64,000 bases of DNA from Minisyncoccota bacterium (lineage in GTDB: Bacteria > Patescibacteriota > Minisyncoccia > UBA6257 > GWB1-50-10): assembly GCA_041917695.1 (NCBI GenBank), contig JAYRXE010000037.1, positions 2,155 through 66,154 of the forward strand, given 5' to 3'. The notes under the pieces are model-generated. The model saw nothing but the letters and a program-made list of their open reading frames with translations. It made no database searches and was not told the DNA's origin. A program made the position numbers and the translations under genes. Shown piece by piece: positions 21,549 through 61,358 of the stretch (positions are counted from its first letter, which is position 1; each line of letters starts with the position of its first letter).

Positions 21549-21583
21549 CTAAAACAAAAACACCCGTTTCGGGTGTTTTTGTT
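21549..21583 (+). terminator. CTAAAACAAA-hairpin terminator directly after tRNA-Arg
   Basis: ctaaaacaaaaacacccgtttcgggtgtttttgtt. The same CTAAAWACAAA+hairpin architecture follows both tRNA-Pro genes. Confidence 0.6.
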
Positions 21584-21624
21584 CGTGCAGAAGGAAAGTT
21601 AGGGCAGAGGAGAAGAATGATTAC

Positions 21625-32728: not shown

Positions 32729-32886
32729 CTGTGGAGATGGTGGGAATTTCACATCGCTCCGCTCTTTGGAACCCAGCGGTTCCAATACCTCCGCCACGGG
32801 GAAACTCTCGTTTCCCTGGCCCCTTTCCTAGTTCAACTCCATATCTCCGAAATCAAATTACCTCCCATTGGGAGGTAATTTGATTC
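32729..32886 (-). repeat. tmRNA 3'-flanking structured module ending in a copy of the tmRNA acceptor 3' strand
   Basis: ctgtggagatggtgggaatttcac at 32729-32752 duplicates the ssrA 3' end at 32886. The intervening sequence shares hairpins and motifs with the modules that follow tRNA-Pro and tRNA-Lys. Confidence 0.7.
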
Positions 32887-33218
32887 TGTGGAGATGGTGG
32901 GAGTTGAACCCACGTCCGATGAGGAGCGTCCATGCGATCTACGAGCGTAGTTTCTGATTGCTCAGAGGAACGATATTCCGAACTGGATTTCTCGCTTTCC
33001 CTTCTTTGTCCGGAGGGTCCGGAAAAGCCAGCCTAAGGTATTACACCGGATGCCTCCTATTAGGCATCAGAGTCCGATGTCCGGAGCGTTACGCCGCGAA
33101 GGCGAACGCCGGAACTGCAACTTTGTTGTTGTCAGTTAGTGTTTGTGGCCGGAGTACGAGCGTGCCGTCTCGGCCCGCACGCGTGAGCGCTTTCTTACCG
33201 TCGAAGCCCGACATCCCC
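32887..33218 (-). ncRNA. ssrA: tmRNA (ssrA)
   Basis: 5' GGGGAUGUCGGGCUUCGACGG pairs with 3' CAUCUCCA. The T-arm GGUUCAACUCCC is present. The tag ORF ends ...VAVPAFAFAA-UAA. The gene is adjacent to smpB. Confidence 0.88.
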
Positions 33219-33267: not shown

Positions 33268-33543
33268 TTAGCCCTTGCCTATATTTCGTCTTTTAAGGAA
33301 CTCGCTTTTAAGCCTTTGCTTAAATCGGCCACCCCATAGGCTTTTCAGGAATCGCTCGCGATTGAAAGCTTCGGTTTTATCCAAAAACTTTTCAGAATGA
33401 ATCAGAGTTAGCGGGCGGCGATTGTGAGTTGCTTCGACAATTCCTTGTTCATGCGCCTTTAGTCGATGCTCAAGATTTGAAGTGCATCCCACATAAAGTT
33501 TTTCGTCTTTCTCACTGAAGAGAATATAAACGAAATATTCCAT
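33268..33543 (-). CDS. GIY-YIG domain nuclease (UPF0213/YhbQ-like), low-GC insertion between ssrA and smpB
   Basis: YFVYILFSEKDEKLYVGCTSNLEHRLKAH is a GIY-YIG motif. GC is much lower than the flanks. Confidence 0.75.
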   Translation of the reverse strand: MEYFVYILFSEKDEKLYVGCTSNLEHRLKAHEQGIVEATHNRRPLTLIHSEKFLDKTEAFNRERFLKSLWGGRFKQRLKSEFLKRRNIGKG

Positions 33544-33547
33544 AAAC

Positions 33548-33988
33548 CTATTTGTGAAACCTGCGGATTTCGCGTTCGGTTTCGCGCTTCTTGATCACCT
33601 CGCGCTTGTCGAACTGCTTTTTCCCGCGCCCGAGTCCAAGCTCAAGCTTCAGGAATCCGCGCTTATTGTTATAGAGCGAGACGGGGACGAGGGTCAAGCC
33701 GGTTTTCATTTTTTCAGCGAGGGTTTTCAGCTCTTTTTTACCGAGAAGGAGTTTCCGCGTCCGGTCCGGCTTGTGGGATTCGGGGACGTTTCCCGGCTGG
33801 AAGGGCTGGATCATGAGGCCGACCACGAAAGCCTCGCCGTTCCGGATGATGGCGTGCGAGCCCTGGAGGTTCGCCCGGCCCATTTTCACCGATTTCGCCT
33901 CAAGACCGGTCAAAACAACCCCCGCCTCGAGGGTGTCGAGTATCTCATAGTCGAATCTAGCTCTTTTATTGACGGCGTAGGGTTCCAT
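33548..33988 (-). CDS. smpB: SsrA-binding protein SmpB
   Basis: AVNKRARFDYEI...GLEAKSVKMGRANL. ATG chosen at MEPYAV. The ORF track extends to a TTG at 34018. Confidence 0.88.
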   Translation of the reverse strand: MEPYAVNKRARFDYEILDTLEAGVVLTGLEAKSVKMGRANLQGSHAIIRNGEAFVVGLMIQPFQPGNVPESHKPDRTRKLLLGKKELKTLAEKMKTGLTLVPVSLYNNKRGFLKLELGLGRGKKQFDKREVIKKRETEREIRRFHK

Positions 33989-34041
33989 ACGTAGCCTAAG
34001 GGTAGCATTTAATATCAATTTAAAAAAAGAAAGGAGGCCGT

Positions 34042-50977: not shown

Positions 50978-51301
50978 ATGCCAAACGACTGGTTTTTGCT
51001 CGTTATTGGAAATGAGACCACTACAACATGCATGGGAGGGCACACTGAAACCGTAACGCAGGTGCATGTGGCATACGGAACCGATAAAGCAGTGAGGGAT
51101 TCCTTTACCAAAAAAGCCATTGCATTGAGAGACAGAAACAAGCAAAGGAAGCGGATCACTTTCCACGCTTCTATTAAGAGCGTCATCATCAAACGGCTTA
51201 CCAGCAATGGGGAAACTCTCCCTGAAAAAGAAATGGAAGAATTTGTAAGGGCTGCCGTAACTATGGATCCTGCGAAACTAAAGAAAGCATTAGCTAGCTG
51301 A
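50978..51301 (+). CDS. hypothetical protein (AT-rich)
   Basis: ORF with an AGGAGG RBS and a terminator at about 51311-51338. Confidence 0.4.
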   Translation: MPNDWFLLVIGNETTTTCMGGHTETVTQVHVAYGTDKAVRDSFTKKAIALRDRNKQRKRITFHASIKSVIIKRLTSNGETLPEKEMEEFVRAAVTMDPAKLKKALAS

Positions 51302-51337
51302 TAAGATCCCAAACTCCGCGTATGCGGGGTTTTTTAT

Positions 51338-51669
51338 TGGGCGTAGAAATTTCACGTCGCGGGGCTGGGGAATTGAACAATTCGCCCTTTCCCGTTCAAT
51401 TCACTCCTAGTCCTAAAACCCCGATCTGAAATATCGGGGTTCGGACGAACAAATCCGCCTTCAGGCGGATTTGTTTTAGTCGGGCTGCTGGGAATTTCAC
51501 GTCGTCCCGCCGAAGGCGTGACTCCTTGAGAACCGAGGGTTCTCAACCGCCAGTTGGCGGTCTCTCCGACACGGAAGGGACACATCCGTTTCCCTTCCGA
51601 CCCATCCCTCGTTCAATTCCCTAATTCAACAAACGCAAACGCAGGCTGAATGCCTGCGTTTGTATTTAG
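51338..51669 (-). repeat. two tandem tRNA-3'-flanking structured modules (module 1 about 51480-51669, decayed module 2 about 51338-51479)
   Basis: Module 1 is about 90% identical, in inverted orientation, to 58660-58852 and ends in GACGTGAAATTCCCAGCAGCCCGA. Module 2 ends in CGTGAAATTTCTACGCCCA. Confidence 0.7.
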
Positions 51670-51740
51670 TCGGGCTGCTGGGAATTGAACCCAGTCTACC
51701 TGCTCCCAAAGCAGGCGTACTACCGGTATACGACAGCCCG
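51670..51740 (-). tRNA. tRNA-Pro (anticodon TGG)
   Basis: CGGGCTG...CAGCCCG-A. Anticodon loop TTTGGGA. Outside the anticodon arm it is identical to the tRNA-Pro at 58589. Confidence 0.85.
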
Positions 51741-51751
51741 ATTAATAAATG

Positions 51752-53866
51752 CTATTCCCTGTGCAGGGTCTTCGCAAACTCAGTGATGCGGCGTTTTATC
51801 TCCGGCACCGTGTCGAGGCGGGGGTCGGTGCGGAGAATCTCGTCCGCGTATTCCTTCGCGTGCTTCAAAAGGCGGGGATTCTGGAGCGCCGACATCGCCA
51901 AATCGGGGAAGCCCGATTGCGAGAGCCCGAAGAGCTCGCCCGGCCCCCGGTCTTTCAAATCATACTCGGCGAGTTCAAAACCGTTTTTTGCTTTCTCAAG
52001 ATATCGGAGCCGTTCCTGGGTTTTCTCGTCCTCCTTTTCGGTGAAGAGGAGGCAATGCGATTGGTGCATGCCTCTCCCTACGCGGCCGCGAAATTGGTAA
52101 AGCTGGGCGAGGCCGAAGCGGTCGGCGTCTTCAACCATCATGACGGTCGCGTTCGGGACGTCGATGCCGACCTCGATGACCGACGTAGAGACCAGGATGT
52201 CGATTTTTCGCGCGGAAAAGTCTCCCATCACTTTCTCTTTCTCCGCCGGCTTCATCTTCCCATGCAGCATGCCCACGCGAAGATCAGGGAAGGTTTTCTT
52301 TGCAAGCTTTTCGTACTCGAGCTTCACAGACTTCGCTTCAAGGGTCGCTTCCTCCTTTTCGGTGAGAGGAGCGGCTTCCGGAGGCTCGATGCGGGGACAA
52401 ATCACAAATGCCTGTCGGCCCGTCGCAATTTCTTTTTTGATGAATTCATATGCTGATTTCCGCTCATCCTTCGGTACGAGCCTCGTCTCAATCGGTTTGC
52501 GGTCTTTCGGCAGCTCGGTGATGAGTGAGAGATCAAGGTCTGCAAAAAGCACGAGGGACATCGTGCGGGGAATCGGCGTTGCGGACATCGAAAGGAAATG
52601 CGGCACGACTTTGCCGGTTTCAGCTTCGAGAAGCTTGGCGCGCTGGGAAACGCCGAAGCGGTGCTGTTCGTCCACGACGGCGAGCACGAGGTTTTTGAAC
52701 GCGCTCCGGCGGTTCAAGAGGGCGTGGGTGCCCACGACGATCTTCACCGCGCCTTTTTTGATTTCCTTTTCGAGCGCGGGCTTTGTCATCACGGTTTCAA
52801 GCCCTGCGCCGTAGAAGACGCGCGCTTCCGAGGCGGTGAGGAGCGCGATACCCGTTTCAAGTTCGCCGAAAAGGCGGGTGAGATTTCCGTAATGCTGGCG
52901 TGCGAGGATTTCCGTCGGCGCCATCATCGCGGCCTGGAAGCCTTTTTGGGCGGCAAGTACGGCGGCAAGCGCTGCAACGATGGTCTTTCCGCTTCCCACG
53001 TCTCCCTGCAGCAGGCGGTGCATGGGGAAGCCTCTTCCCAAGTCTTTTACCGTTTCCCACAAGGCGTGCTTTTGCGATTCCGTGAGCTCGAATGGCACGA
53101 GCTTCAAGAGTTCTTTGATCTCCTCTGTCTCTATCGGAAGCGGGAACGCTTTCTTCGCCTCTATCCTTTTTCGCTCAAGTCCCATATGGACGGAAAGCGT
53201 GAGGAGCTCCTCAAAGGCGAATCGCGCTTTTGCATGATAGGCAGCGGCAAGATTTTCGGGAAAATGGATGGCGCGCAGCGCATCTTCCCGTCCCGGCAAA
53301 TTTTCCTTTTCGAGCATCTCCACCGGCAGGGTTTCGGGTACGCGCACGTGGTTCAAGATCGGCTGAACGATGAAGCGGATGCCGCGGGAAGTCAGTCCCT
53401 TCGTTTCGCGGTAGACGGGGACGATGCGCGCGGTGTGCTTAGTGGATTCGTTTTCAGAAGGCTCGTAGAGTGGGTTGGTGAGCTGGATGCGCCCGTCTTT
53501 TTCGGTGACGCGCCCGGCGAAATTCGCGTGCGCTCCCTTGGGAAGGGATTTCGCCACATACGATTGGTTGAACCATACGATGGAGAGCTTGCCGGTGCCG
53601 TCCGAGATCCGCGCTTCCGTGATCGTCATGCGCCTCCGCCAGATCTTCCGGAGCTCGATCTTTTCAACGATGCCGCTTACCGTACAGGACGTTCCGGCCG
53701 TGAGTTCGGCAATGGGCGTGATTCGCGAAAAGTCCTCATAGCGATAGGGGAAGTGGAAGAAAAGGTCTTTCACGGTCTCGACCCCCAGTTTTTTGAGCCG
53801 CTCGGCAAAATAGCCGCGCATGGATTTCAGCTGTGCAATGGGAGTTTCGAGGGAGATGAGCGGCAT
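51752..53866 (-). CDS. recG: ATP-dependent DNA helicase RecG
   Basis: Wedge domain, Walker A GDVGSGKT, DEQHRFG and helicase C motifs. The product is 704 aa. Confidence 0.92.
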   Translation of the reverse strand: MPLISLETPIAQLKSMRGYFAERLKKLGVETVKDLFFHFPYRYEDFSRITPIAELTAGTSCTVSGIVEKIELRKIWRRRMTITEARISDGTGKLSIVWFNQSYVAKSLPKGAHANFAGRVTEKDGRIQLTNPLYEPSENESTKHTARIVPVYRETKGLTSRGIRFIVQPILNHVRVPETLPVEMLEKENLPGREDALRAIHFPENLAAAYHAKARFAFEELLTLSVHMGLERKRIEAKKAFPLPIETEEIKELLKLVPFELTESQKHALWETVKDLGRGFPMHRLLQGDVGSGKTIVAALAAVLAAQKGFQAAMMAPTEILARQHYGNLTRLFGELETGIALLTASEARVFYGAGLETVMTKPALEKEIKKGAVKIVVGTHALLNRRSAFKNLVLAVVDEQHRFGVSQRAKLLEAETGKVVPHFLSMSATPIPRTMSLVLFADLDLSLITELPKDRKPIETRLVPKDERKSAYEFIKKEIATGRQAFVICPRIEPPEAAPLTEKEEATLEAKSVKLEYEKLAKKTFPDLRVGMLHGKMKPAEKEKVMGDFSARKIDILVSTSVIEVGIDVPNATVMMVEDADRFGLAQLYQFRGRVGRGMHQSHCLLFTEKEDEKTQERLRYLEKAKNGFELAEYDLKDRGPGELFGLSQSGFPDLAMSALQNPRLLKHAKEYADEILRTDPRLDTVPEIKRRITEFAKTLHRE

Positions 53867-53913
53867 ACCCTCTAGTTTTAGCAGATTTCAGCCCCCTTTC
53901 CGAGAAAGCGCCG

Positions 53914-54234
53914 ATGTGCTTCCATGGTGAGAGCAGGATTCACAATCTATTCTCAGAAAGGAGTTGTTGCCCTATGGCACTCTGGAAATTGTTTGTATTG
54001 TTTTTTGCCGCACTCGCCATATCCATTCTTAACGGCGCATGCGGTCCGGGAGTGTGGTGCGGAAACGCGCTGCATGACCATTCGGTGCGCGCGATCCCGG
54101 GAGGAACGAATACCTTCTTCTTCAACCCCGAAATTCCCGAAGGCGAAGACCATATCGCCATTCCTGAATTCCCTCCGGAAGAATTTTTTGAGGAACCCGA
54201 TGCGATTGACGATATCGACATGAAAAATATTTGA
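53914..54234 (+). CDS. small secreted hypothetical protein with acidic C-terminus
   Basis: Hydrophobic stretch MALWKLFVLFFAALAISILNGA is signal-peptide-like. The alternative start at about 53974 is more likely. Confidence 0.4.
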   Translation: MCFHGESRIHNLFSERSCCPMALWKLFVLFFAALAISILNGACGPGVWCGNALHDHSVRAIPGGTNTFFFNPEIPEGEDHIAIPEFPPEEFFEEPDAIDDIDMKNI

Positions 54235-54376
54235 ATACCAAAATCCCCCAGCGGGGGATTTTTATTCTTGCCAAATGGAAAGAGTGTGGTATGGTTTTTC
54301 ATAGCACTTCAGCGGTAACGCTGGAGATAACATACCAATTATTCATTAACTTTTAACCCAGTGGAGAAGAATCCCG

Positions 54377-54691
54377 ATGAGAAAATTAATCACTTCGGGG
54401 CTCCTTTTCCTGGTTTGCCTCTTCGTCATGGGAGTAAGCGCGTATTCGTCGGGCAAGGGCGATGTGATCGTTGGCGGGTTTGCCGATGATGATATCCTTG
54501 CCGGAATAACGCAGACAAAACCGTACGGAGAAATGCAAAACCCGGAAAAGATGTGCTCACCGCCCGAAACGGCGAACATTACCAACCCGATGGTTGGGGT
54601 CACAAAAGTTTCAGGTAATATCCAGGGTGCCGTTTCGGCAGGCGAGAGGGGGACAGAGGTGGCGTACGCCACAGAACTTGCTCTTTGCTGA
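54377..54691 (+). CDS. small secreted hypothetical protein
   Basis: Signal peptide MRKLITSGLLFLVCLFVMGVSAYS. Confidence 0.45.
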   Translation: MRKLITSGLLFLVCLFVMGVSAYSSGKGDVIVGGFADDDILAGITQTKPYGEMQNPEKMCSPPETANITNPMVGVTKVSGNIQGAVSAGERGTEVAYATELALC

Positions 54692-54860
54692 AATAACATC
54701 CAGTAATGAATAAAAAAATTAAAGGCACGATGCCTTTAGGGTTTATCCCAAGAAAGAAGCGCTCTCCTATTATGTACGGAGGCGCTTTTTATTTTTGACA
54801 ATACCGCCCGCGTAGCGTACAAAGAGGCGAGTATTTCAATAATTTTAAAAGGAGGTTCAG

Positions 54861-55268
54861 GTGTTCGGTCTCAATAAGAAAGGGGCGGTGAAAGTCCTTG
54901 ATCCAAAGGCGGATTATTCAAATCTTTGGCATTTTAATGACGATTTTCACGTTATTAAGGTTTTGGATATTTCAGAAAGATTCGAATCGAAAGCGGGAGA
55001 AATCATTCTTCTTTATGGAGCGCGGGGAAGGGACACGGAAGCGTTTTTTCTAAAATTCGGTACGGGATCTACTTATTGTCCGTTAACTTCTCAATTCGAT
55101 TATTATTTGGCAGAAAGGCTATATTGGCTTGTAGATATTCTCGGCTCGGATTCTTCTTCTTTTTATGATTTTATTCAATTTCACCGCCCGCCGACGGAGA
55201 GATGGGTGCATGCCATAAGTCCTTTTTTCGGCATCACGGACAGCACGTACATGAAAAGTTACATTTAA
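54861..55268 (+). CDS. hypothetical protein (AT-rich)
   Basis: AAAGGAGG RBS and a GTG start. Confidence 0.4.
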   Translation: MFGLNKKGAVKVLDPKADYSNLWHFNDDFHVIKVLDISERFESKAGEIILLYGARGRDTEAFFLKFGTGSTYCPLTSQFDYYLAERLYWLVDILGSDSSSFYDFIQFHRPPTERWVHAISPFFGITDSTYMKSYI

Positions 55269-55363
55269 ACGCCCTCCGGGGCGTTTTTATTGCGAATTTT
55301 CCGGGGTGTGCTATAAAAAGGCCACAGTAAACCGTTTAACAAATTAATCCGAGAAAGGTACAG

Positions 55364-55621
55364 GTGACTCTGATGGCACGCATCAAAATTTCTTACCGCC
55401 ACATCGTGCGCGGCATTCTCACGATGATTTGCGGCATTGCGCTCTTTGTTTCGCTGGAACTGGCGCAAATCGCTTCATGCATGACGACACTGGAAGATAC
55501 TCATTTTTCAAATCCGCACCAGGTTGCCCCGATCGAAAGGATTGTTCCCAACGTTCAGGGACATGTTTTTCCGAAACCGACCGGGACACGGATAGAATTG
55601 CATGCACGCAGTAATTGCTGA
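55364..55621 (+). CDS. small hypothetical membrane protein
   Basis: One TM helix. Confidence 0.3.
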   Translation: MTLMARIKISYRHIVRGILTMICGIALFVSLELAQIASCMTTLEDTHFSNPHQVAPIERIVPNVQGHVFPKPTGTRIELHARSNC

Positions 55622-55750
55622 TTTTGTTTCATGCTGTTACCTCTTATTAATTGTTTTACCTCCGATTGGCGCCCTCTGTGGGCGCCTTTTTCTTGAAAAA
55701 GTTCCCCGGCTATTCTAATCTAACGAAAGTCCTTCAGAAGCGGTTTTATC

Positions 55751-55823
55751 GCCCCGTTAGCTCAGTTGGTAGAGCAGTTGCCTCTTAAGCAAACGGTCCT
55801 AGGTTCGAGCCCTAGACGGGGCA
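55751..55823 (+). tRNA. tRNA-Lys (anticodon CTT)
   Basis: GCCCCGT...ACGGGGC-A. Anticodon loop CTCTTAA. Confidence 0.85.
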
Positions 55824-55963
55824 CACCGTGCATTTTATTCCAGAGCTCGAACCCGTATGGGGTCGGGAGCGGCGGAACGCTCCCGCGGAGGAATGCATGC
55901 CTGCGTAGGCAGGCATTGAAAACCGTGGGTTTTCAACTCCGTGAGATTGCCCTAGACGGGGCA
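55824..55963 (+). repeat. tRNA-Lys 3'-flanking structured module ending in a copy of the tRNA-Lys 3' end
   Basis: It contains hairpin gcatgcctgcgtaggcaggcat and hairpin TTGAAAACCgtgGGTTTTCAA, then CCGTGAGATTGCCCTAGACGGGGCACAC, which repeats the tRNA 3' end at 55811-55826. Confidence 0.7.
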
Positions 55964-56005
55964 CACTTTTCGCTTTCAATCCCTCTTCTTGTAGGATAAA
56001 CATGC

Positions 56006-56079
56006 GTCCTCGTAGCTCAACTGGATAGAGTACTTGGCTTCGAACCAAGAGGTTGCAGGTTCAAGTCCTGCCGAGGACA
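56006..56079 (+). tRNA. tRNA-Arg (anticodon TCG)
   Basis: GTCCTCG...CGAGGAC-A. Anticodon loop CTTCGAA. Confidence 0.8.
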
Positions 56080-56095
56080 CCCTATTCTCAGCCGT

Positions 56096-57574
56096 ATGAA
56101 AAAAGAAGCCGATATCGCGATTCCGCGTCCCGTGGTGGATGCGGCGAGCGCCCTTATCCACAAGGGCTATCAGGCGTATCTGGTCGGGGGGTCCGTGCGC
56201 GATATGGCACGGGGCATTGCGCCGAAGGATTACGATATCGCGACCGACGCCCTGCCGGAAGATGTGCTTAAAATTTTCCCCGACGGGAAATATGAAAATT
56301 CATTCGGCACGGTCCTCGTTAAAACCGGTTCAGACGATGAAACGGTAAAGATCCTTGAAGTCACCACGTTCCGCATCGAAGGCAAATACTCCGATTTCCG
56401 CCGCCCGGATGACGTGACGTTTGCAAAGACCATCGAGGAGGATCTCTCGCGGCGCGATTTCACGGTGAATGCGCTCGCGCTCGATCTTTCGCCACAGGGG
56501 AGCGGGGAGATCGTCGACCCGTTCGGCGGAAGAGATGATTTGGAAAATGGCCTCATCCGCGCCGTCGGGAATCCCGACGACCGTTTCACTGAAGATGCCT
56601 TGCGTCTCATCCGTGCCGTGCGTTTTGCCGTCGCGCTCGATTTCGCTATCGAGAAAGAGACCTTTTCGGCCCTGGTGGGCCGCGCACCGCTACTCGAAAA
56701 AGTCGCGAAAGAGCGCATCCGCGACGAGTTCCAGAAAATCATCATGACTCCCCGCGCTGCGGATGGCGTAGTGCTCCTCGAGGAAGCGGGACTCCTTCGG
56801 TACGTGATGCCGGAACTCCGGGAGGGAATCGGATGCGCGCAGAATAAGCACCATATCTATACCGTTTTCGAGCATAACGTGAAGGCGCTCGAGTATGCGG
56901 CGCAAAAGGGCTTTTCGCTTGAGGTTCGCCTTGCGGCACTGATGCATGACATCGGGAAACCTCGCACGAAGCGTGGGCAGGGAGCTGACGCGACCTTCTA
57001 TAATCACGAGATGGTCGGCGCGCGGATGGCGAAAGAGATTCTCACGAGGCTTGCGTTTTCCTCGGCAACCATCGAAAAGGTGCGGCATCTTATCCGTTAC
57101 CACATGTTCTATTACAACGTGGGCGAGGTTTCCGCTTCAGGCGTACGCCGTTTCCTCGCGCGCGTCGGGAGCGAGCATATCGACGACATCATGCGCGTCC
57201 GCGAAGCGGACCGCATCGGCAGCCACGTGCCGAAGGCGTTCCCGTACAAATTGCGGCATCTGATGTTCATGATAGAAAAGGTCCGGCACGACCCCGTGCA
57301 TCCGAAGATGCTCGTCGTGAAAGGCGACGACGTGATGAAGTTCCTTGGCATTCCCGCCGGCCCGAAGGTGGGTCAGGTGCTTTCCGTACTCCTTGAGGAT
57401 GTACTCGACGATCCCTCGCGGAATACCCGGGAATATCTTGAGCCGCGTGTCCGCGAACTCGGAAGCCTAACCGACGAGGAGCTTGTGAAGCGGATGCAGG
57501 ATGCCAAAGAGCGCGCCCGCGAAGCCGAAGAAGAGACGGAGGAAGAAATGAAGCGGAAGTTCAAGGTACAATAA
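56096..57574 (+). CDS. cca: CCA-adding tRNA nucleotidyltransferase with HD domain
   Basis: Pol-beta-like head GGSVRDMARGIAPKDYDIAT and HD motif LMHDIGK. This matches the absence of encoded CCA on most tRNAs here. Confidence 0.88.
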   Translation: MKKEADIAIPRPVVDAASALIHKGYQAYLVGGSVRDMARGIAPKDYDIATDALPEDVLKIFPDGKYENSFGTVLVKTGSDDETVKILEVTTFRIEGKYSDFRRPDDVTFAKTIEEDLSRRDFTVNALALDLSPQGSGEIVDPFGGRDDLENGLIRAVGNPDDRFTEDALRLIRAVRFAVALDFAIEKETFSALVGRAPLLEKVAKERIRDEFQKIIMTPRAADGVVLLEEAGLLRYVMPELREGIGCAQNKHHIYTVFEHNVKALEYAAQKGFSLEVRLAALMHDIGKPRTKRGQGADATFYNHEMVGARMAKEILTRLAFSSATIEKVRHLIRYHMFYYNVGEVSASGVRRFLARVGSEHIDDIMRVREADRIGSHVPKAFPYKLRHLMFMIEKVRHDPVHPKMLVVKGDDVMKFLGIPAGPKVGQVLSVLLEDVLDDPSRNTREYLEPRVRELGSLTDEELVKRMQDAKERAREAEEETEEEMKRKFKVQ

Positions 57575-57580
57575 GAGCAT

Positions 57581-58147
57581 ATGCGGAACGCCATCAAGAT
57601 ACTTCTTTTTGCCGATGCGTGGTGCGGTTTCGCGCTCGGTATGATCGGGCCTATTTACGCGATCTTCGTGGAAGGCATCGGCGGGAGCATCTTGGATGCG
57701 AGCTGGGCGTACTTCGCCTTCATGGTTTCGCAAGGACTCGCGCTTTTCGCGCTCGGTCACGCCGAAGACCGCACGATCCGCCGGGAGCGCTACGTGACGG
57801 GCGGATATGCGCTTATTGCCTTGAGCTGCCTGATGTACTTGGTGGTGTACGACCAAACGACGCTCGTTATCACGCAGGTCGTCGCCGGCCTTGGCGGAGC
57901 CGTGCTTTCTCCCGCGTTCGATTCGCTCTACGGCGAACACGTCGATAAAAAACATGAGGCCTCGGAGTGGGGGTATTGGGAGGGGATGGGGTATCTCGTC
58001 ACCGCCGCGGGCGCCATCACCGGGGGATACATCGCACATCTCTACGGATTTCGGACGCTTTTCCTCTACATGTTTGCCGTTTCTTTTGTGAGTGTCCTTG
58101 TTTCCCTAAATTTGTGGCGGGGCGAAAAGTATTTAGCCAATCATTAA
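57581..58147 (+). CDS. half-size (6-TM) MFS-like membrane protein
   Basis: Six predicted TM helices and an MFS motif-A-like GHAEDRTIRRER after TM2. It is only 188 aa. Confidence 0.45.
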   Translation: MRNAIKILLFADAWCGFALGMIGPIYAIFVEGIGGSILDASWAYFAFMVSQGLALFALGHAEDRTIRRERYVTGGYALIALSCLMYLVVYDQTTLVITQVVAGLGGAVLSPAFDSLYGEHVDKKHEASEWGYWEGMGYLVTAAGAITGGYIAHLYGFRTLFLYMFAVSFVSVLVSLNLWRGEKYLANH

Positions 58148-58152
58148 CGACC

Positions 58153-58584
58153 ATGAAAGTACGCATCAAACGGTTTGATACCGAACTTCCGCTTCCCGAA
58201 TACAAAACTTCCGGGGCAGCCGCTTTCGATTTGACCGCGCGTGAAGAAGTGACGATAGCACCCCATGTGATCGGTTACGTACCGCTAAACGTCGCCATCG
58301 AGACCCCGGAAGGATATTTTCTTCTTATCGCCGCCCGAAGCGGTACTCATAAGCGGGGACTTATGCTCTCAAATGGAATTGGGATTATCGACCCCGACTA
58401 TTCGGGGGACAATGACGAGGTGATCGCCGCTTACTTTAATTTTACGGAAACCCCTGTTATAGTGGAGCGCGGAGAACGGATCGCTCAAGGAACATTCATA
58501 AAGATCGAGAGGGGGATTTGGCAGGAGGAAAAATCCATGCCAAACAAAAACCGCGGCGGATTTGGCTCCACAGGACATAAATAA
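58153..58584 (+). CDS. dut: dUTP diphosphatase
   Basis: AARSGTHKRGLMLSNGIGIIDPDYSGD dUTPase motifs. Start taken at the internal ATG (MKVRIKR). Confidence 0.88.
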   Translation: MKVRIKRFDTELPLPEYKTSGAAAFDLTAREEVTIAPHVIGYVPLNVAIETPEGYFLLIAARSGTHKRGLMLSNGIGIIDPDYSGDNDEVIAAYFNFTETPVIVERGERIAQGTFIKIERGIWQEEKSMPNKNRGGFGSTGHK

Positions 58585-58588
58585 TCAT

Positions 58589-58659
58589 CGGGCTGTCGTA
58601 TACCGGTAGTACGCACGCTTCGGGTGCGTGTAGACTGGGTTCAATTCCCAGCAGCCCGA
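58589..58659 (+). tRNA. tRNA-Pro (anticodon CGG)
   Basis: CGGGCTG...CAGCCCG-A. Anticodon loop TTCGGGT. Starts 4 nt after the dut stop. Confidence 0.85.
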
Positions 58660-58852
58660 CTAAATACAAACGCAGGCTGAATGCCTGCGTTTGTGTTTGT
58701 TGAATTAGGGAATTGAACGAGGGATGGGTCGGAAGGGAAACGGATGTGTCCCTTCCGTGTCGGAGAGACCGCCAGCCGGCGGTTGAGAACCGAGGGTTCT
58801 CAAGGAGTCCCGCCTTTGGCGGGACGACGTGAAATTCCCAGCAGCCCGACCA
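58660..58852 (+). repeat. tRNA-Pro 3'-flanking structured module (four hairpins) ending in GACGTGAAATTCCCAGCAGCCCGACCA
   Basis: Hairpins: aaacgcaggctgaatgcctgcgttt, ggaagggaaacggatgtgtcccttcc, ccgccagccggcgg, ttgagaaccgagggttctcaa and cccgcctttggcggg. Then comes a T-loop-like motif and a copy of the acceptor 3' strand. An inverted copy is at 51480-51669. Confidence 0.75.
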
Positions 58853-60680: not shown

Positions 60681-61358
60681 TTAGGGTACGAGCACCGTTT
60701 CGACGCCCGATTCGCCGACCATAACGCATGAGCTCGGCTGGTGTATCCACACCCCGGTGTTCCAGTACGATACGCCGTTTTCCGTGAGTTCATACGGGAA
60801 ATGCGTATGGCCGCAGAAGACGCGGGTTGAGCCCCGGGCGCGCGCTTTCGCGATGGCGTTCACTGCCACGTGGTGCGAGAATTTCCGCCACAGGCCGAAT
60901 TTTTTCTGCGTGAAGGTGATGAGTTTGTCCGCGATGATGATGAGCGGCGTGAGGCCGTAATAAAAGAAGAAGATGGCTTCGTTCACGATTTGGAACGGGG
61001 TGAAGGGCGTTTCAAATTCATCCCCGTGGAAGGCGAGGTGTTTTTCTCCGCGGTATTCCCATTCGTATTCATGGATGACGGGGATGCCGAGGAAAGGGGA
61101 GAGGTGCGAAAGCTCGCGATCGTGGTTTCCCGTGATCCACACCACCTCTTTCCCGCTTTCGTGGATTTCGCGGATGCGCGCGAGAAATTCGTAATCTTCG
61201 AAACGAAGTTTCCGCAGATTCATCGAGTGGAGCACGTCCCCGAGGAGGATAAGCCGCGAGAATCCCGTTTCGGCGATGAGCTTCGTGAGCTCCGCGACAC
61301 GCGCCGTGCGCAAGCCGAGATGGATATCCGAAACGATGAGGGTATCGACGTTAATCAT
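60681..61358 (-). CDS. calcineurin-like metallophosphoesterase (LpxH-like)
   Basis: VSDIHLG, LGDVLH, GNHD and GHTH motifs. Confidence 0.75.
   Translation of the reverse strand: MINVDTLIVSDIHLGLRTARVAELTKLIAETGFSRLILLGDVLHSMNLRKLRFEDYEFLARIREIHESGKEVVWITGNHDRELSHLSPFLGIPVIHEYEWEYRGEKHLAFHGDEFETPFTPFQIVNEAIFFFYYGLTPLIIIADKLITFTQKKFGLWRKFSHHVAVNAIAKARARGSTRVFCGHTHFPYELTENGVSYWNTGVWIHQPSSCVMVGESGVETVLVP

Follow-up and report, generated by a model that had tools for sequence, protein, structure and literature searches.

The segment at 51336-51479, which lies beyond module 1 of the tRNA-Pro(TGG) gene, is read here, with a probability of roughly 0.6, as the oldest and outermost layer of a stack of insertions. 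Its odd end would be the decayed older 3' end of tRNA-Pro(TGG), and module 1 would have arrived later from the CGG paralogue. The segment belongs to a Patescibacteria-wide family of structured modules of 100-270 nt directly 3' of tRNA and tmRNA genes, and the family itself is a more important result than the odd end. All positions are those of the window, the whole 64-kb stretch of DNA that was analysed; numbers preceded by L denote related loci and contigs.

Anatomy of the tRNA-Pro(TGG) locus

The initial annotation had described the segment as a further copy of module 1 that ends in the acceptor-like 7-mer of another tRNA. The strings on which it relied are all present on the minus strand at 51336-51479: CTAAAACAAATCCGCC with its hairpin (51479-51448), GGAGTGAATTGAACGGGAAAGGG (51407-51385), GACGTGAAATT (51358-51348) and TACGCCC (51345-51339). 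Anti-T denotes the module segment that is complementary to the host's own T-loop and the 3' strand of its T-stem; it always ends in GAAC. From the tRNA outwards, the locus is made up as follows.

51670..51740, minus strand: tRNA-Pro(TGG), the host gene (ARAGORN; Rfam tRNA model, 59.2 bits; tRNA-Pro alignment)
51629..51669, minus strand: proximal trailer, CTAAATACAAA-hairpin-TTTGTT, terminator-like, and a short spacer before module 1 (terminator scan, stem 51662-51636)
51480..51628, minus strand: module 1 (family covariance model, 36.8 bits; inverted repeats I6, I7 and I14; repeat D1)
51448..51479, minus strand: terminator-like trailer after the 3'-end copy of module 1, CTAAA and a hairpin (perfect 13-bp inverted repeat, fold)
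51417..51442, minus strand: second hairpin, GAACCCCGAT..ATCGGGGTT, then TTTTAGGA (fold; L197 sequence)
51334..51411, minus strand: module 2 proper, an internally deleted relic (family covariance model with filters off, 15.7 bits)
51407-51394, minus strand: anti-T of module 2, GGAGTGAATTGAAC
51393-51385, minus strand: core remnant of module 2, GGGAAAGGG
51378-51357, minus strand: T-arm-like stretch of module 2, GTTCAATTCCCCAGCCCCGCGA
51358-51348, minus strand: conserved right end of module 2, GACGTGAAATT
51347-51336, minus strand: terminal stretch of module 2, TCTACGCCCAAT
51339..51345, minus strand: the 7-mer TACGCCC, followed by AAT, read as part of a decayed older tRNA-Pro(TGG) 3'-end copy
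51308..51335, no strand assigned: hairpin AAAAAACCCCGC-ATAC-GCGGAGTTT, the putative native terminator of the old tRNA-Pro end (terminator scan, plus strand 51311-51332)

Module 1 runs from its anti-T GGGAATTGAAC (51621-51611) through a hairpin core and GACGTGAAATT to an exact copy of the last 17 nt of tRNA-Pro(TGG) (51496-51480). With the adjoining CTAAA these 17 nt form the 22-nt direct repeat D1, found at tRNA-Pro(TGG) and again at the end of module 1. The trailer that follows resembles that of tRNA-Arg(CCG) (z 5.8), a gene with no module whose trailer is also of the same style as the proximal trailer of tRNA-Pro(TGG). The second hairpin and TTTTAGGA are found in L197 as well, at the matching relative position.

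Module 2 was missed by the covariance model with default filters. With the filters off it was matched end to end (51334-51411) at 15.7 bits, with 55 internal model positions replaced by 15 nt. The segment is therefore a member of the module family, as had been proposed, and an internally deleted relic in place of a full copy. Its 7-mer does differ from the acceptor strand of tRNA-Pro, CAGCCCG. In the family register the right end consists of a pseudo-T-loop (GTGAAATT), 5 nt of T-stem, 7 nt of acceptor strand and the discriminator, and the 12 nt after the loop divide here into TCTAC and GCCCAAT. Taken as an intact 7-nt acceptor strand, TACGCCC is out of this register and leaves a T-stem of 2 nt; that reading is arbitrary.

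The hairpin at 51308..51335 doubles as the terminator of a convergent ORF (50978-51301, plus strand) of 107 aa, which has its own ribosome-binding site and no Pfam hit. This ORF is located between the terminator of module 2 and a conserved 203-aa gene. It is absent from the corresponding position in L193 and L195 and is therefore taken as a lineage-specific insertion beside the module stack. A comparable gene of about 203 aa, putatively homologous, is found near a tRNA-Pro in L197 and L201.

The trailers of this locus belong to a recurrent family, C(T/C)AAA(A/T)ACAAA-GC hairpin-TTTGTT(CGT), with conserved flanks and compensatory changes in the stem. Its sites (window 21550-21590, 51629-51668 and 51448-51479; L201 5580-5620) stand after tRNA-Arg(CCG), which has no module, after tRNA-Pro and after module 1, and a close relative follows tRNA-Pro(CGG) in L201 (z 9.7).

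A family of tRNA- and tmRNA-linked modules

Family members share one order of parts: host gene, an optional terminator-like spacer, anti-T, core, GTGA(A/G)A and a copy of the host 3' end. The conserved core begins with nAGGrAnGGGGTC, continues with a GGGAAAC/GTTTCCC hairpin and GTGGnGGA, and closes with a hairpin containing AACC..GGTT. GTGA(A/G)A differs from the host's GTTC(A/G)A in having GA for TC, and the distal copy spans the 3' strand of the host T-stem, the 3' strand of the acceptor stem and the discriminator. Five copies lie in the 64-kb window, behind four of its eight tRNA and tmRNA genes, and up to three were counted per 12-kb contig. Besides modules 1 and 2, the copies in the window are the following.

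58661..58850, plus strand: sister module behind tRNA-Pro(CGG) (37.8 bits; about 95% identical to module 1, hairpin loops inverted)
32729..32887, minus strand: family member behind tmRNA (122.7 bits; anti-T GGAGTTGAAC fits the tmRNA T-arm; ends in a copy of the tmRNA 3' end)
55825..55964, plus strand: family member behind tRNA-Lys(CTT) (35.5 bits; ends in GTGAGATT and GCCCTAGACGGGGCAC, a copy of the host 3' end)

GACGTGAAATT occurs again behind tRNA-Pro(CGG) and GATGTGAAATT again behind tmRNA; tRNA-Lys(CTT) was revealed as the fourth module host in the window by the covariance model. A pattern scan over one genome per species gave ten loci with six true members, five in Patescibacteria MAGs and one in a genome annotated as uncultured bacterium; five stand directly behind a tRNA and the sixth is cut by a contig end. 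A metagenome scan gave 76 further loci. The covariance model was annotated by hand and built on seven members. It superseded an alignment of 19 modules made with MAFFT and RNAalifold, which was shifted and recovered two hairpins only. With the model, 96 copies were found in the window, L001 and the fetched Patescibacteria loci, and their hosts include nearly every tRNA type as well as tmRNA. Saccharibacteria are among the lineages with modules (L107, L110).

Both outer segments are matched to the host. Anti-T complementarity has a median of 11 nt to the module's own host against 4 nt to other hosts, and the exact distal 3'-end copy a median of 15 nt with the own host against 6 with others (58 distinct modules). 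Searches of Rfam 15 with the window region and a canonical member at permissive thresholds returned tRNA, which passes, and otherwise hairpin noise far below the gathering score. No description of the module family was found in a full-text literature search. In viral collections, motifs of 14-15 bases gave 105 loci, all attributable to chance, and both motifs together were found in none. In the search for an autonomous full-length element, host-less modules had no matching tRNA elsewhere in their own contigs.

A second type of module with a different core was seen in L118 (the first module behind tRNA-Ser), L120, L144 and L175. It has an anti-T followed by GAA(A/T)A(G/C)(T/G)CGG.. or ..ACGGGGTCGCGAAAC.., ends in a host 3'-end copy and often stands in tandem with a canonical module, which suggests a wider superfamily. 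A tRNA-Asn module in L186 (1256-1300) has the distal end GTGAGATTCCCTGCCTACCGGCAGGCAGGCTACCGCCGGAGCTA; there the host end is partly duplicated around a new small hairpin, and this looks like a template switch inside the 3'-end copy. A weak covariance-model match in the window (61072-61142, plus strand; 12.8 bits, E 0.36), with no tRNA adjacent, contains AGGAAAGGGG and is either a chance match or a stray core fragment.

Gain and loss in relatives

Orthologous loci of relatives with RecG 60-70% identical and CCA-adding enzyme 73% identical were compared. Empty sites were found: in L201/L194 the tRNA-Pro(TGG), tRNA-Pro(CGG) and tRNA-Lys genes all stand without a module, and so does tRNA-Pro(TGG) in L195. 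The tRNA-Pro(CGG) of L200 is identical to that of the window; its module, a canonical one (92.8 bits), and its proximal trailer both differ from those of the window. Beyond them, L200 has a distal 3'-end copy and trailer that are homologous to those of the window (z 9.7) and match the L197 trailer immediately after tRNA-Pro (z 11.6). Tandem arrays occur in L118, L120, L144 and L175, in agreement with serial entry next to the tRNA. Compared with the host 3' end, the distal copies in L114 and L118 show decay, visibly so in the distal module of the L118 array. On these points the initial annotation, which had proposed a mobile origin and serial integration for the module family, is supported.

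Because the window and L200 share the distal trailer and differ in core and proximal trailer, the distal copy and its trailer can be taken as the resident native part of the locus. The insert is then predicted to consist of a 3'-end copy, the proximal trailer, the anti-T and the core. Such a unit would enter the tRNA gene at the T-loop, a step suggested by topology alone since no recombinase or transposase was found. It would bring a replacement tRNA 3' end, a trailer (often a terminator), a T-arm complement and a hairpin core with GTGA at its end; what the gene had before, its original 3' end and its native trailer, would stay behind on the far side. Repeated entry would stack the units, the newest beside the tRNA, and the outer ones would decay.

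The opposite polarity was also considered. A unit made of core, copy and trailer might carry the 3'-end copy and terminator on its right side and insert downstream of an intact tRNA, so that the end of module 2 would come from an L196/L197-type tRNA-Pro(TGG) in another lineage or at another locus, not from another tRNA species. It is in keeping with this that the terminator matching that of module 2 is tRNA-proximal in L196, a position that speaks against the polarity preferred here, which needs a unit that once captured this terminator from a related tRNA-Pro locus. Carried-in sequence is an equally good reading of the distal copy and trailer of L196, which match the tRNA end and trailer of L197. 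Against right-side carriage stand the shared distal trailer with different cores and proximal trailers at tRNA-Pro(CGG) in the window and L200, and the decay of the distal copy relative to the host 3' end in L114 and L118, and we consider it rather unlikely.

Two other indicators of polarity were tried and set aside. An encoded CCA after the distal copy was rejected as a marker of the original end, as the genome is mostly without encoded CCA and other loci show the opposite pattern; a comparison of the tRNA-Lys/tRNA-Arg spacers was rejected with the relatives' spacers too diverged. Separately, tRNA-Pro(TGG) is inverted relative to RecG in L195 (2835-2908) and L197 (2463-2534, with the relic) as compared with the window and L193/L196. 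In the window the tRNA-Gly beside the 203-aa gene is inverted, and small inversions cluster near these tRNA genes.

Identity of the distal end

In the tRNA-Pro alignment the CGG gene is constant among lineages and the TGG genes vary by lineage. The tRNA-Pro(TGG) of the window is chimeric: its acceptor, D and T arms are those of tRNA-Pro(CGG), and its anticodon arm is that of the relatives' TGG genes. The CGG-type arms imply that the 3' end now carried by the gene was imported and that the odd distal end predates it. The proposal of a foreign acceptor end is not supported, and its logic is probably inverted.

The best alignment of the window end together with its terminator was to the 3' end and terminator of tRNA-Pro(TGG) in L196 (score 25; shuffle mean 6.7; next best 18). 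The hairpin at 51308..51335 agrees with the terminator directly after that gene at 19 of 23 positions (z 8.6). The end is short and heavily decayed and admits two alignment registers: TACGCCC may be compared with the L196 acceptor strand CACCCCG (4/7, T-stem truncated), or may represent T-stem plus acceptor positions 64-70 in the L197 register. At the same locus L197 reads GGAATTGAA-tga-GTGAAATTTCCTAC-AATgaatatAAAAAA-terminator, that is, a matching relic GTGAAATTTCCTAC..AAT..AAAAAA-terminator, again preceded by the hairpin and TTTTAGGA. This relic resembles the end of L197's own tRNA-Pro (CCCTGCA against TCCTACA). The L193 mini-module immediately behind tRNA-Pro and the relic in L197 both resemble module 2 itself (p 0.004 and 0.011, respectively). 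These relatives are distant, and the case for orthology of the relics is made by alignments of 20-40 nt (p about 0.005-0.01) and by position. Compared by eye, the anti-T of module 2, GGAGTGAATTGAAC, matches the complement of the L196/L197-type T-arm at 12 of 14 positions.

Aligned alone, without the terminator, the end does not discriminate among tRNA ends: p was 0.009 for a tRNA-Trp-like end of another organism, 0.018 for the L193-type Pro and 0.09-0.26 for the window's own Pro. It becomes informative once the flanking terminator and the relatives' relics are included, and the odd end is then most likely the worn-down original 3' end of the same tRNA-Pro(TGG), pushed out by later insertions. 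Module 2 would have lost its internal hairpins, and TCTACGCCCAAT with the next hairpin would be the decayed 3' end and terminator of a tRNA-Pro(TGG) of the CCCTG/CACCCCG type. The tRNA-Pro(CGG) paralogue would be the later source of module 1, with homologous recombination as the simplest route, and the tRNA body would have been converted to the CGG type.

The initial annotation had instead read the end as the acceptor strand of a different tRNA species, one with 5' GGGCGUA, carried from one tRNA gene to another by the element. A tRNA with a 3' end ..TCTACGCCCA, or with 5' GGGCGUA or AUUGGGC, would then be expected beside a module of the same subtype, and TCTACGCCC in the module of another tRNA. 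The mismatch to the present tRNA-Pro and the weak alignment to the tRNA-Trp-like 3' end from another contig agree with such a source. Of the 11 occurrences of GGGCGTA in the window (6.2 expected) none lies at the start of a tRNA, and among 131 tRNAs of the window and the related fetched loci none starts with GGGCGT and none ends with TACGCCC. The 7-mer also breaks the family register, and both the terminator beside it and the relic in L197 link the end to tRNA-Pro(TGG). Across 58 distinct modules, the distal copy shares 12 or more exact nt with the current host in 66%; for other hosts the figure is 0.7%. A different tRNA species is accordingly the least probable of the sources weighed. What probability it keeps is due mainly to the 64 kb of genome in view and to a stray fragment in L196, by which stray tRNA ends may occur at this locus. 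That fragment (L196 2561-2582) is a lone 22-nt sequence, GGTTCGATTCTCCATCCGCCAC, like the 3' end of a non-Pro tRNA and with a terminator after it, placed 13 nt beyond the distal copy of the tRNA-Pro module.

It is also conceivable that no insertion took place and that the locus arose by local tandem duplication or unequal crossing-over between 3'-end copies, in which case the end of module 2 would be a decayed copy of the present tRNA-Pro end. The direct repeats of 17-22 nt that flank the unit could drive unequal exchange, and the internal stretch GTTCAATTCCCCAGCCCCGCGA resembles an end of the present type. Yet module 1 bears very little resemblance to module 2 and shares about 95% identity with the module of tRNA-Pro(CGG), 7 kb distant. 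The relatives' TGG-type ends give a better alignment with the end than the present one does, and L193 and L197 have mini-modules of the module 2 type but no module 1. Duplication is improbable on this evidence, only slightly less so than a different tRNA species. The mini-modules suggest that the relic predates the split from L193 and L197. If what looks like a foreign acceptor end is native and decayed, it is unfit as evidence for an element that shuttles between tRNA species.

RNA or DNA element

In an alignment fitted to the model, the three modelled helices have 92.7% of cells paired, against 78.7% in shuffles, and double changes occur at 23 of the 26 model base pairs. G.U and A.C counts are 40 and 31 overall, and G.U makes up about 1% in the two core hairpins. 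Between the tRNA-Pro(TGG) and tRNA-Pro(CGG) modules, hairpin loops are reverse-complemented with the stems unchanged (CTC/GAG and ATTCA/TGAAT; 51536-51552 against 58778-58794, and 51636-51662 against 58668-58694). Loop inversion with intact stems is a signature of hairpin flipping or template switching at the DNA level. Since G.U is no commoner than A.C and loops are inverted, the modules look more like template-switched DNA palindromes than like selected RNA. The anti-T is 4-22 nt long and always contiguous outward from GAAC, a variation that would fit passive outward extension of a quasi-palindrome. Against the DNA reading, the purine-rich joining regions and GNRA-like loops have an apparent bias to the tRNA strand, judged from the listed sequences. 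We lean slightly towards a DNA-level element; a functional RNA is the less probable alternative and still a serious one.

A more speculative view, which we think doubtful, is that the modules are programmable targeting devices, a scaffold with two exchangeable segments that would form a guide-directed mobile system specific to Patescibacteria. One segment would complement the sense strand of the host T-arm; the other, being the tRNA 3' end, would be complementary to the antisense strand. RNA or folded single-stranded DNA would direct some enzyme to the T-loop of the chosen tRNA gene, and the change from GTTC to GTGA would shield the module's own copy. One candidate for the enzyme would be a small GIY-YIG nuclease that is repeatedly encoded just upstream of module-bearing tRNA and tmRNA genes.

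In the window this nuclease is a stand-alone ORF of 91 aa (33271-33543, minus strand; Pfam 1.7e-14) between smpB (33551-34018) and tmRNA (33218-32888), immediately upstream of the module-bearing tmRNA. Five of the seven distinct GIY-YIG ORFs with a visible downstream flank, counted in the window and in fetched loci that had been chosen for having modules, lie up to 139 nt upstream of a module-bearing tRNA or tmRNA gene on the same strand (one with a 6-nt overlap).

Comparison with known mobile systems

Surveys by K. P. Williams in 2002-2003 reportedly described tyrosine-integrase islands and prophages with attL/attR in the 3' part of tRNA and tmRNA genes, and tandem arrays at ssrA. The modules likewise sit in the 3' part of the gene, tmRNA included, form tandem stacks with decaying outer copies, and leave an intact gene regenerated by element-borne sequence, their far junction marked by a 15-24-nt copy of the gene's 3' end that starts in the T-loop. 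The distal 3'-end repeat and the regenerated gene of an integrase island were both found (22-nt repeat here; median 15 nt in 58 modules), and filled loci share a conserved distal trailer with an unfilled relative. Unlike such islands, the modules measure only 100-270 nt, contain no ORF and have no recurrent recombinase gene nearby; one conserved core serves nearly all tRNA types, and they carry a host-matched T-arm complement, which integrase att sites do not need. Neither a recombinase beside the modules nor a transposase was recognised in clusters of about 1450 flanking ORFs from 81 loci, which were judged by eye. Those that could be recognised were housekeeping genes; the one conspicuous family besides them was the small GIY-YIG.

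With MITEs and REPIN/REP elements the modules share the form of short, non-coding, hairpin-rich, stem-forming units, present in multiple copies in small genomes and in intergenic 3' regions. Their stems also show compensatory changes with no enrichment of G.U, and loops are inverted between near-identical copies, which implies palindrome dynamics at the DNA level. They differ in occurring strictly behind tRNA and tmRNA genes and always in a single orientation. In place of a fixed transposase site, their terminal inverted repeat varies with the host (4-22 nt), and what is duplicated at the flank is a variable length of the tRNA 3' end, not a target site of fixed length.

The attP(+) site of CTX-phi, which is used by XerCD, has a mismatched overlap in a folded single strand. 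As in this site and in integron attC, the anti-T and pseudo-T-loop of a module can fold to a 12-bp duplex that mimics the target T-arm DNA, and the central 2-nt mismatch of this duplex in most copies (TC to GA) recalls the mismatched overlap. No sign of a single-stranded intermediate, of Xer or IntI involvement or of replication functions was seen for the modules, and their conserved purine-rich joining regions have no counterpart in these sites.

Rolling-circle elements of the IS91 family have an HUH (Y2) transposase and move by one-ended transposition to the target tetranucleotide GTTC/GAAC, where they insert without target duplication. In the modules an invariant GAAC delimits the core on its left, with GTGA or GTTC on its right, and the T-loop's universal GTTC is where the junction falls. 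An IS91-type unit running from a fixed end to the next GTTC would automatically gather the host 3' end and trailer. No HUH transposase came to light, nor any autonomous element, and the likeness to IS91 is a tentative lead.

The family represents a new, miniature kind of mobile DNA that targets tRNA genes, or else a new RNA linked to them. Patescibacteria genomes are very small, yet half of the tRNA and tmRNA genes of the window bear a conserved module of 100-200 nt that is tailored to the host on both sides. Related lineages have gained and lost modules, which appear able to pull a tRNA body towards the sequence of its paralogue. They provide natural markers of strain-level history in uncultured lineages, and their tRNA 3'-end pseudo-fragments can mislead island-finding tools.

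Assemblies also break at modules. L001, a Logan contig of 6990 nt that corresponds to window 51670-58660 and carries an identical RecG, ends exactly at the 3' ends of both tRNA-Pro genes, from which it appears that the repeated unit of tRNA plus module breaks short-read assemblies.
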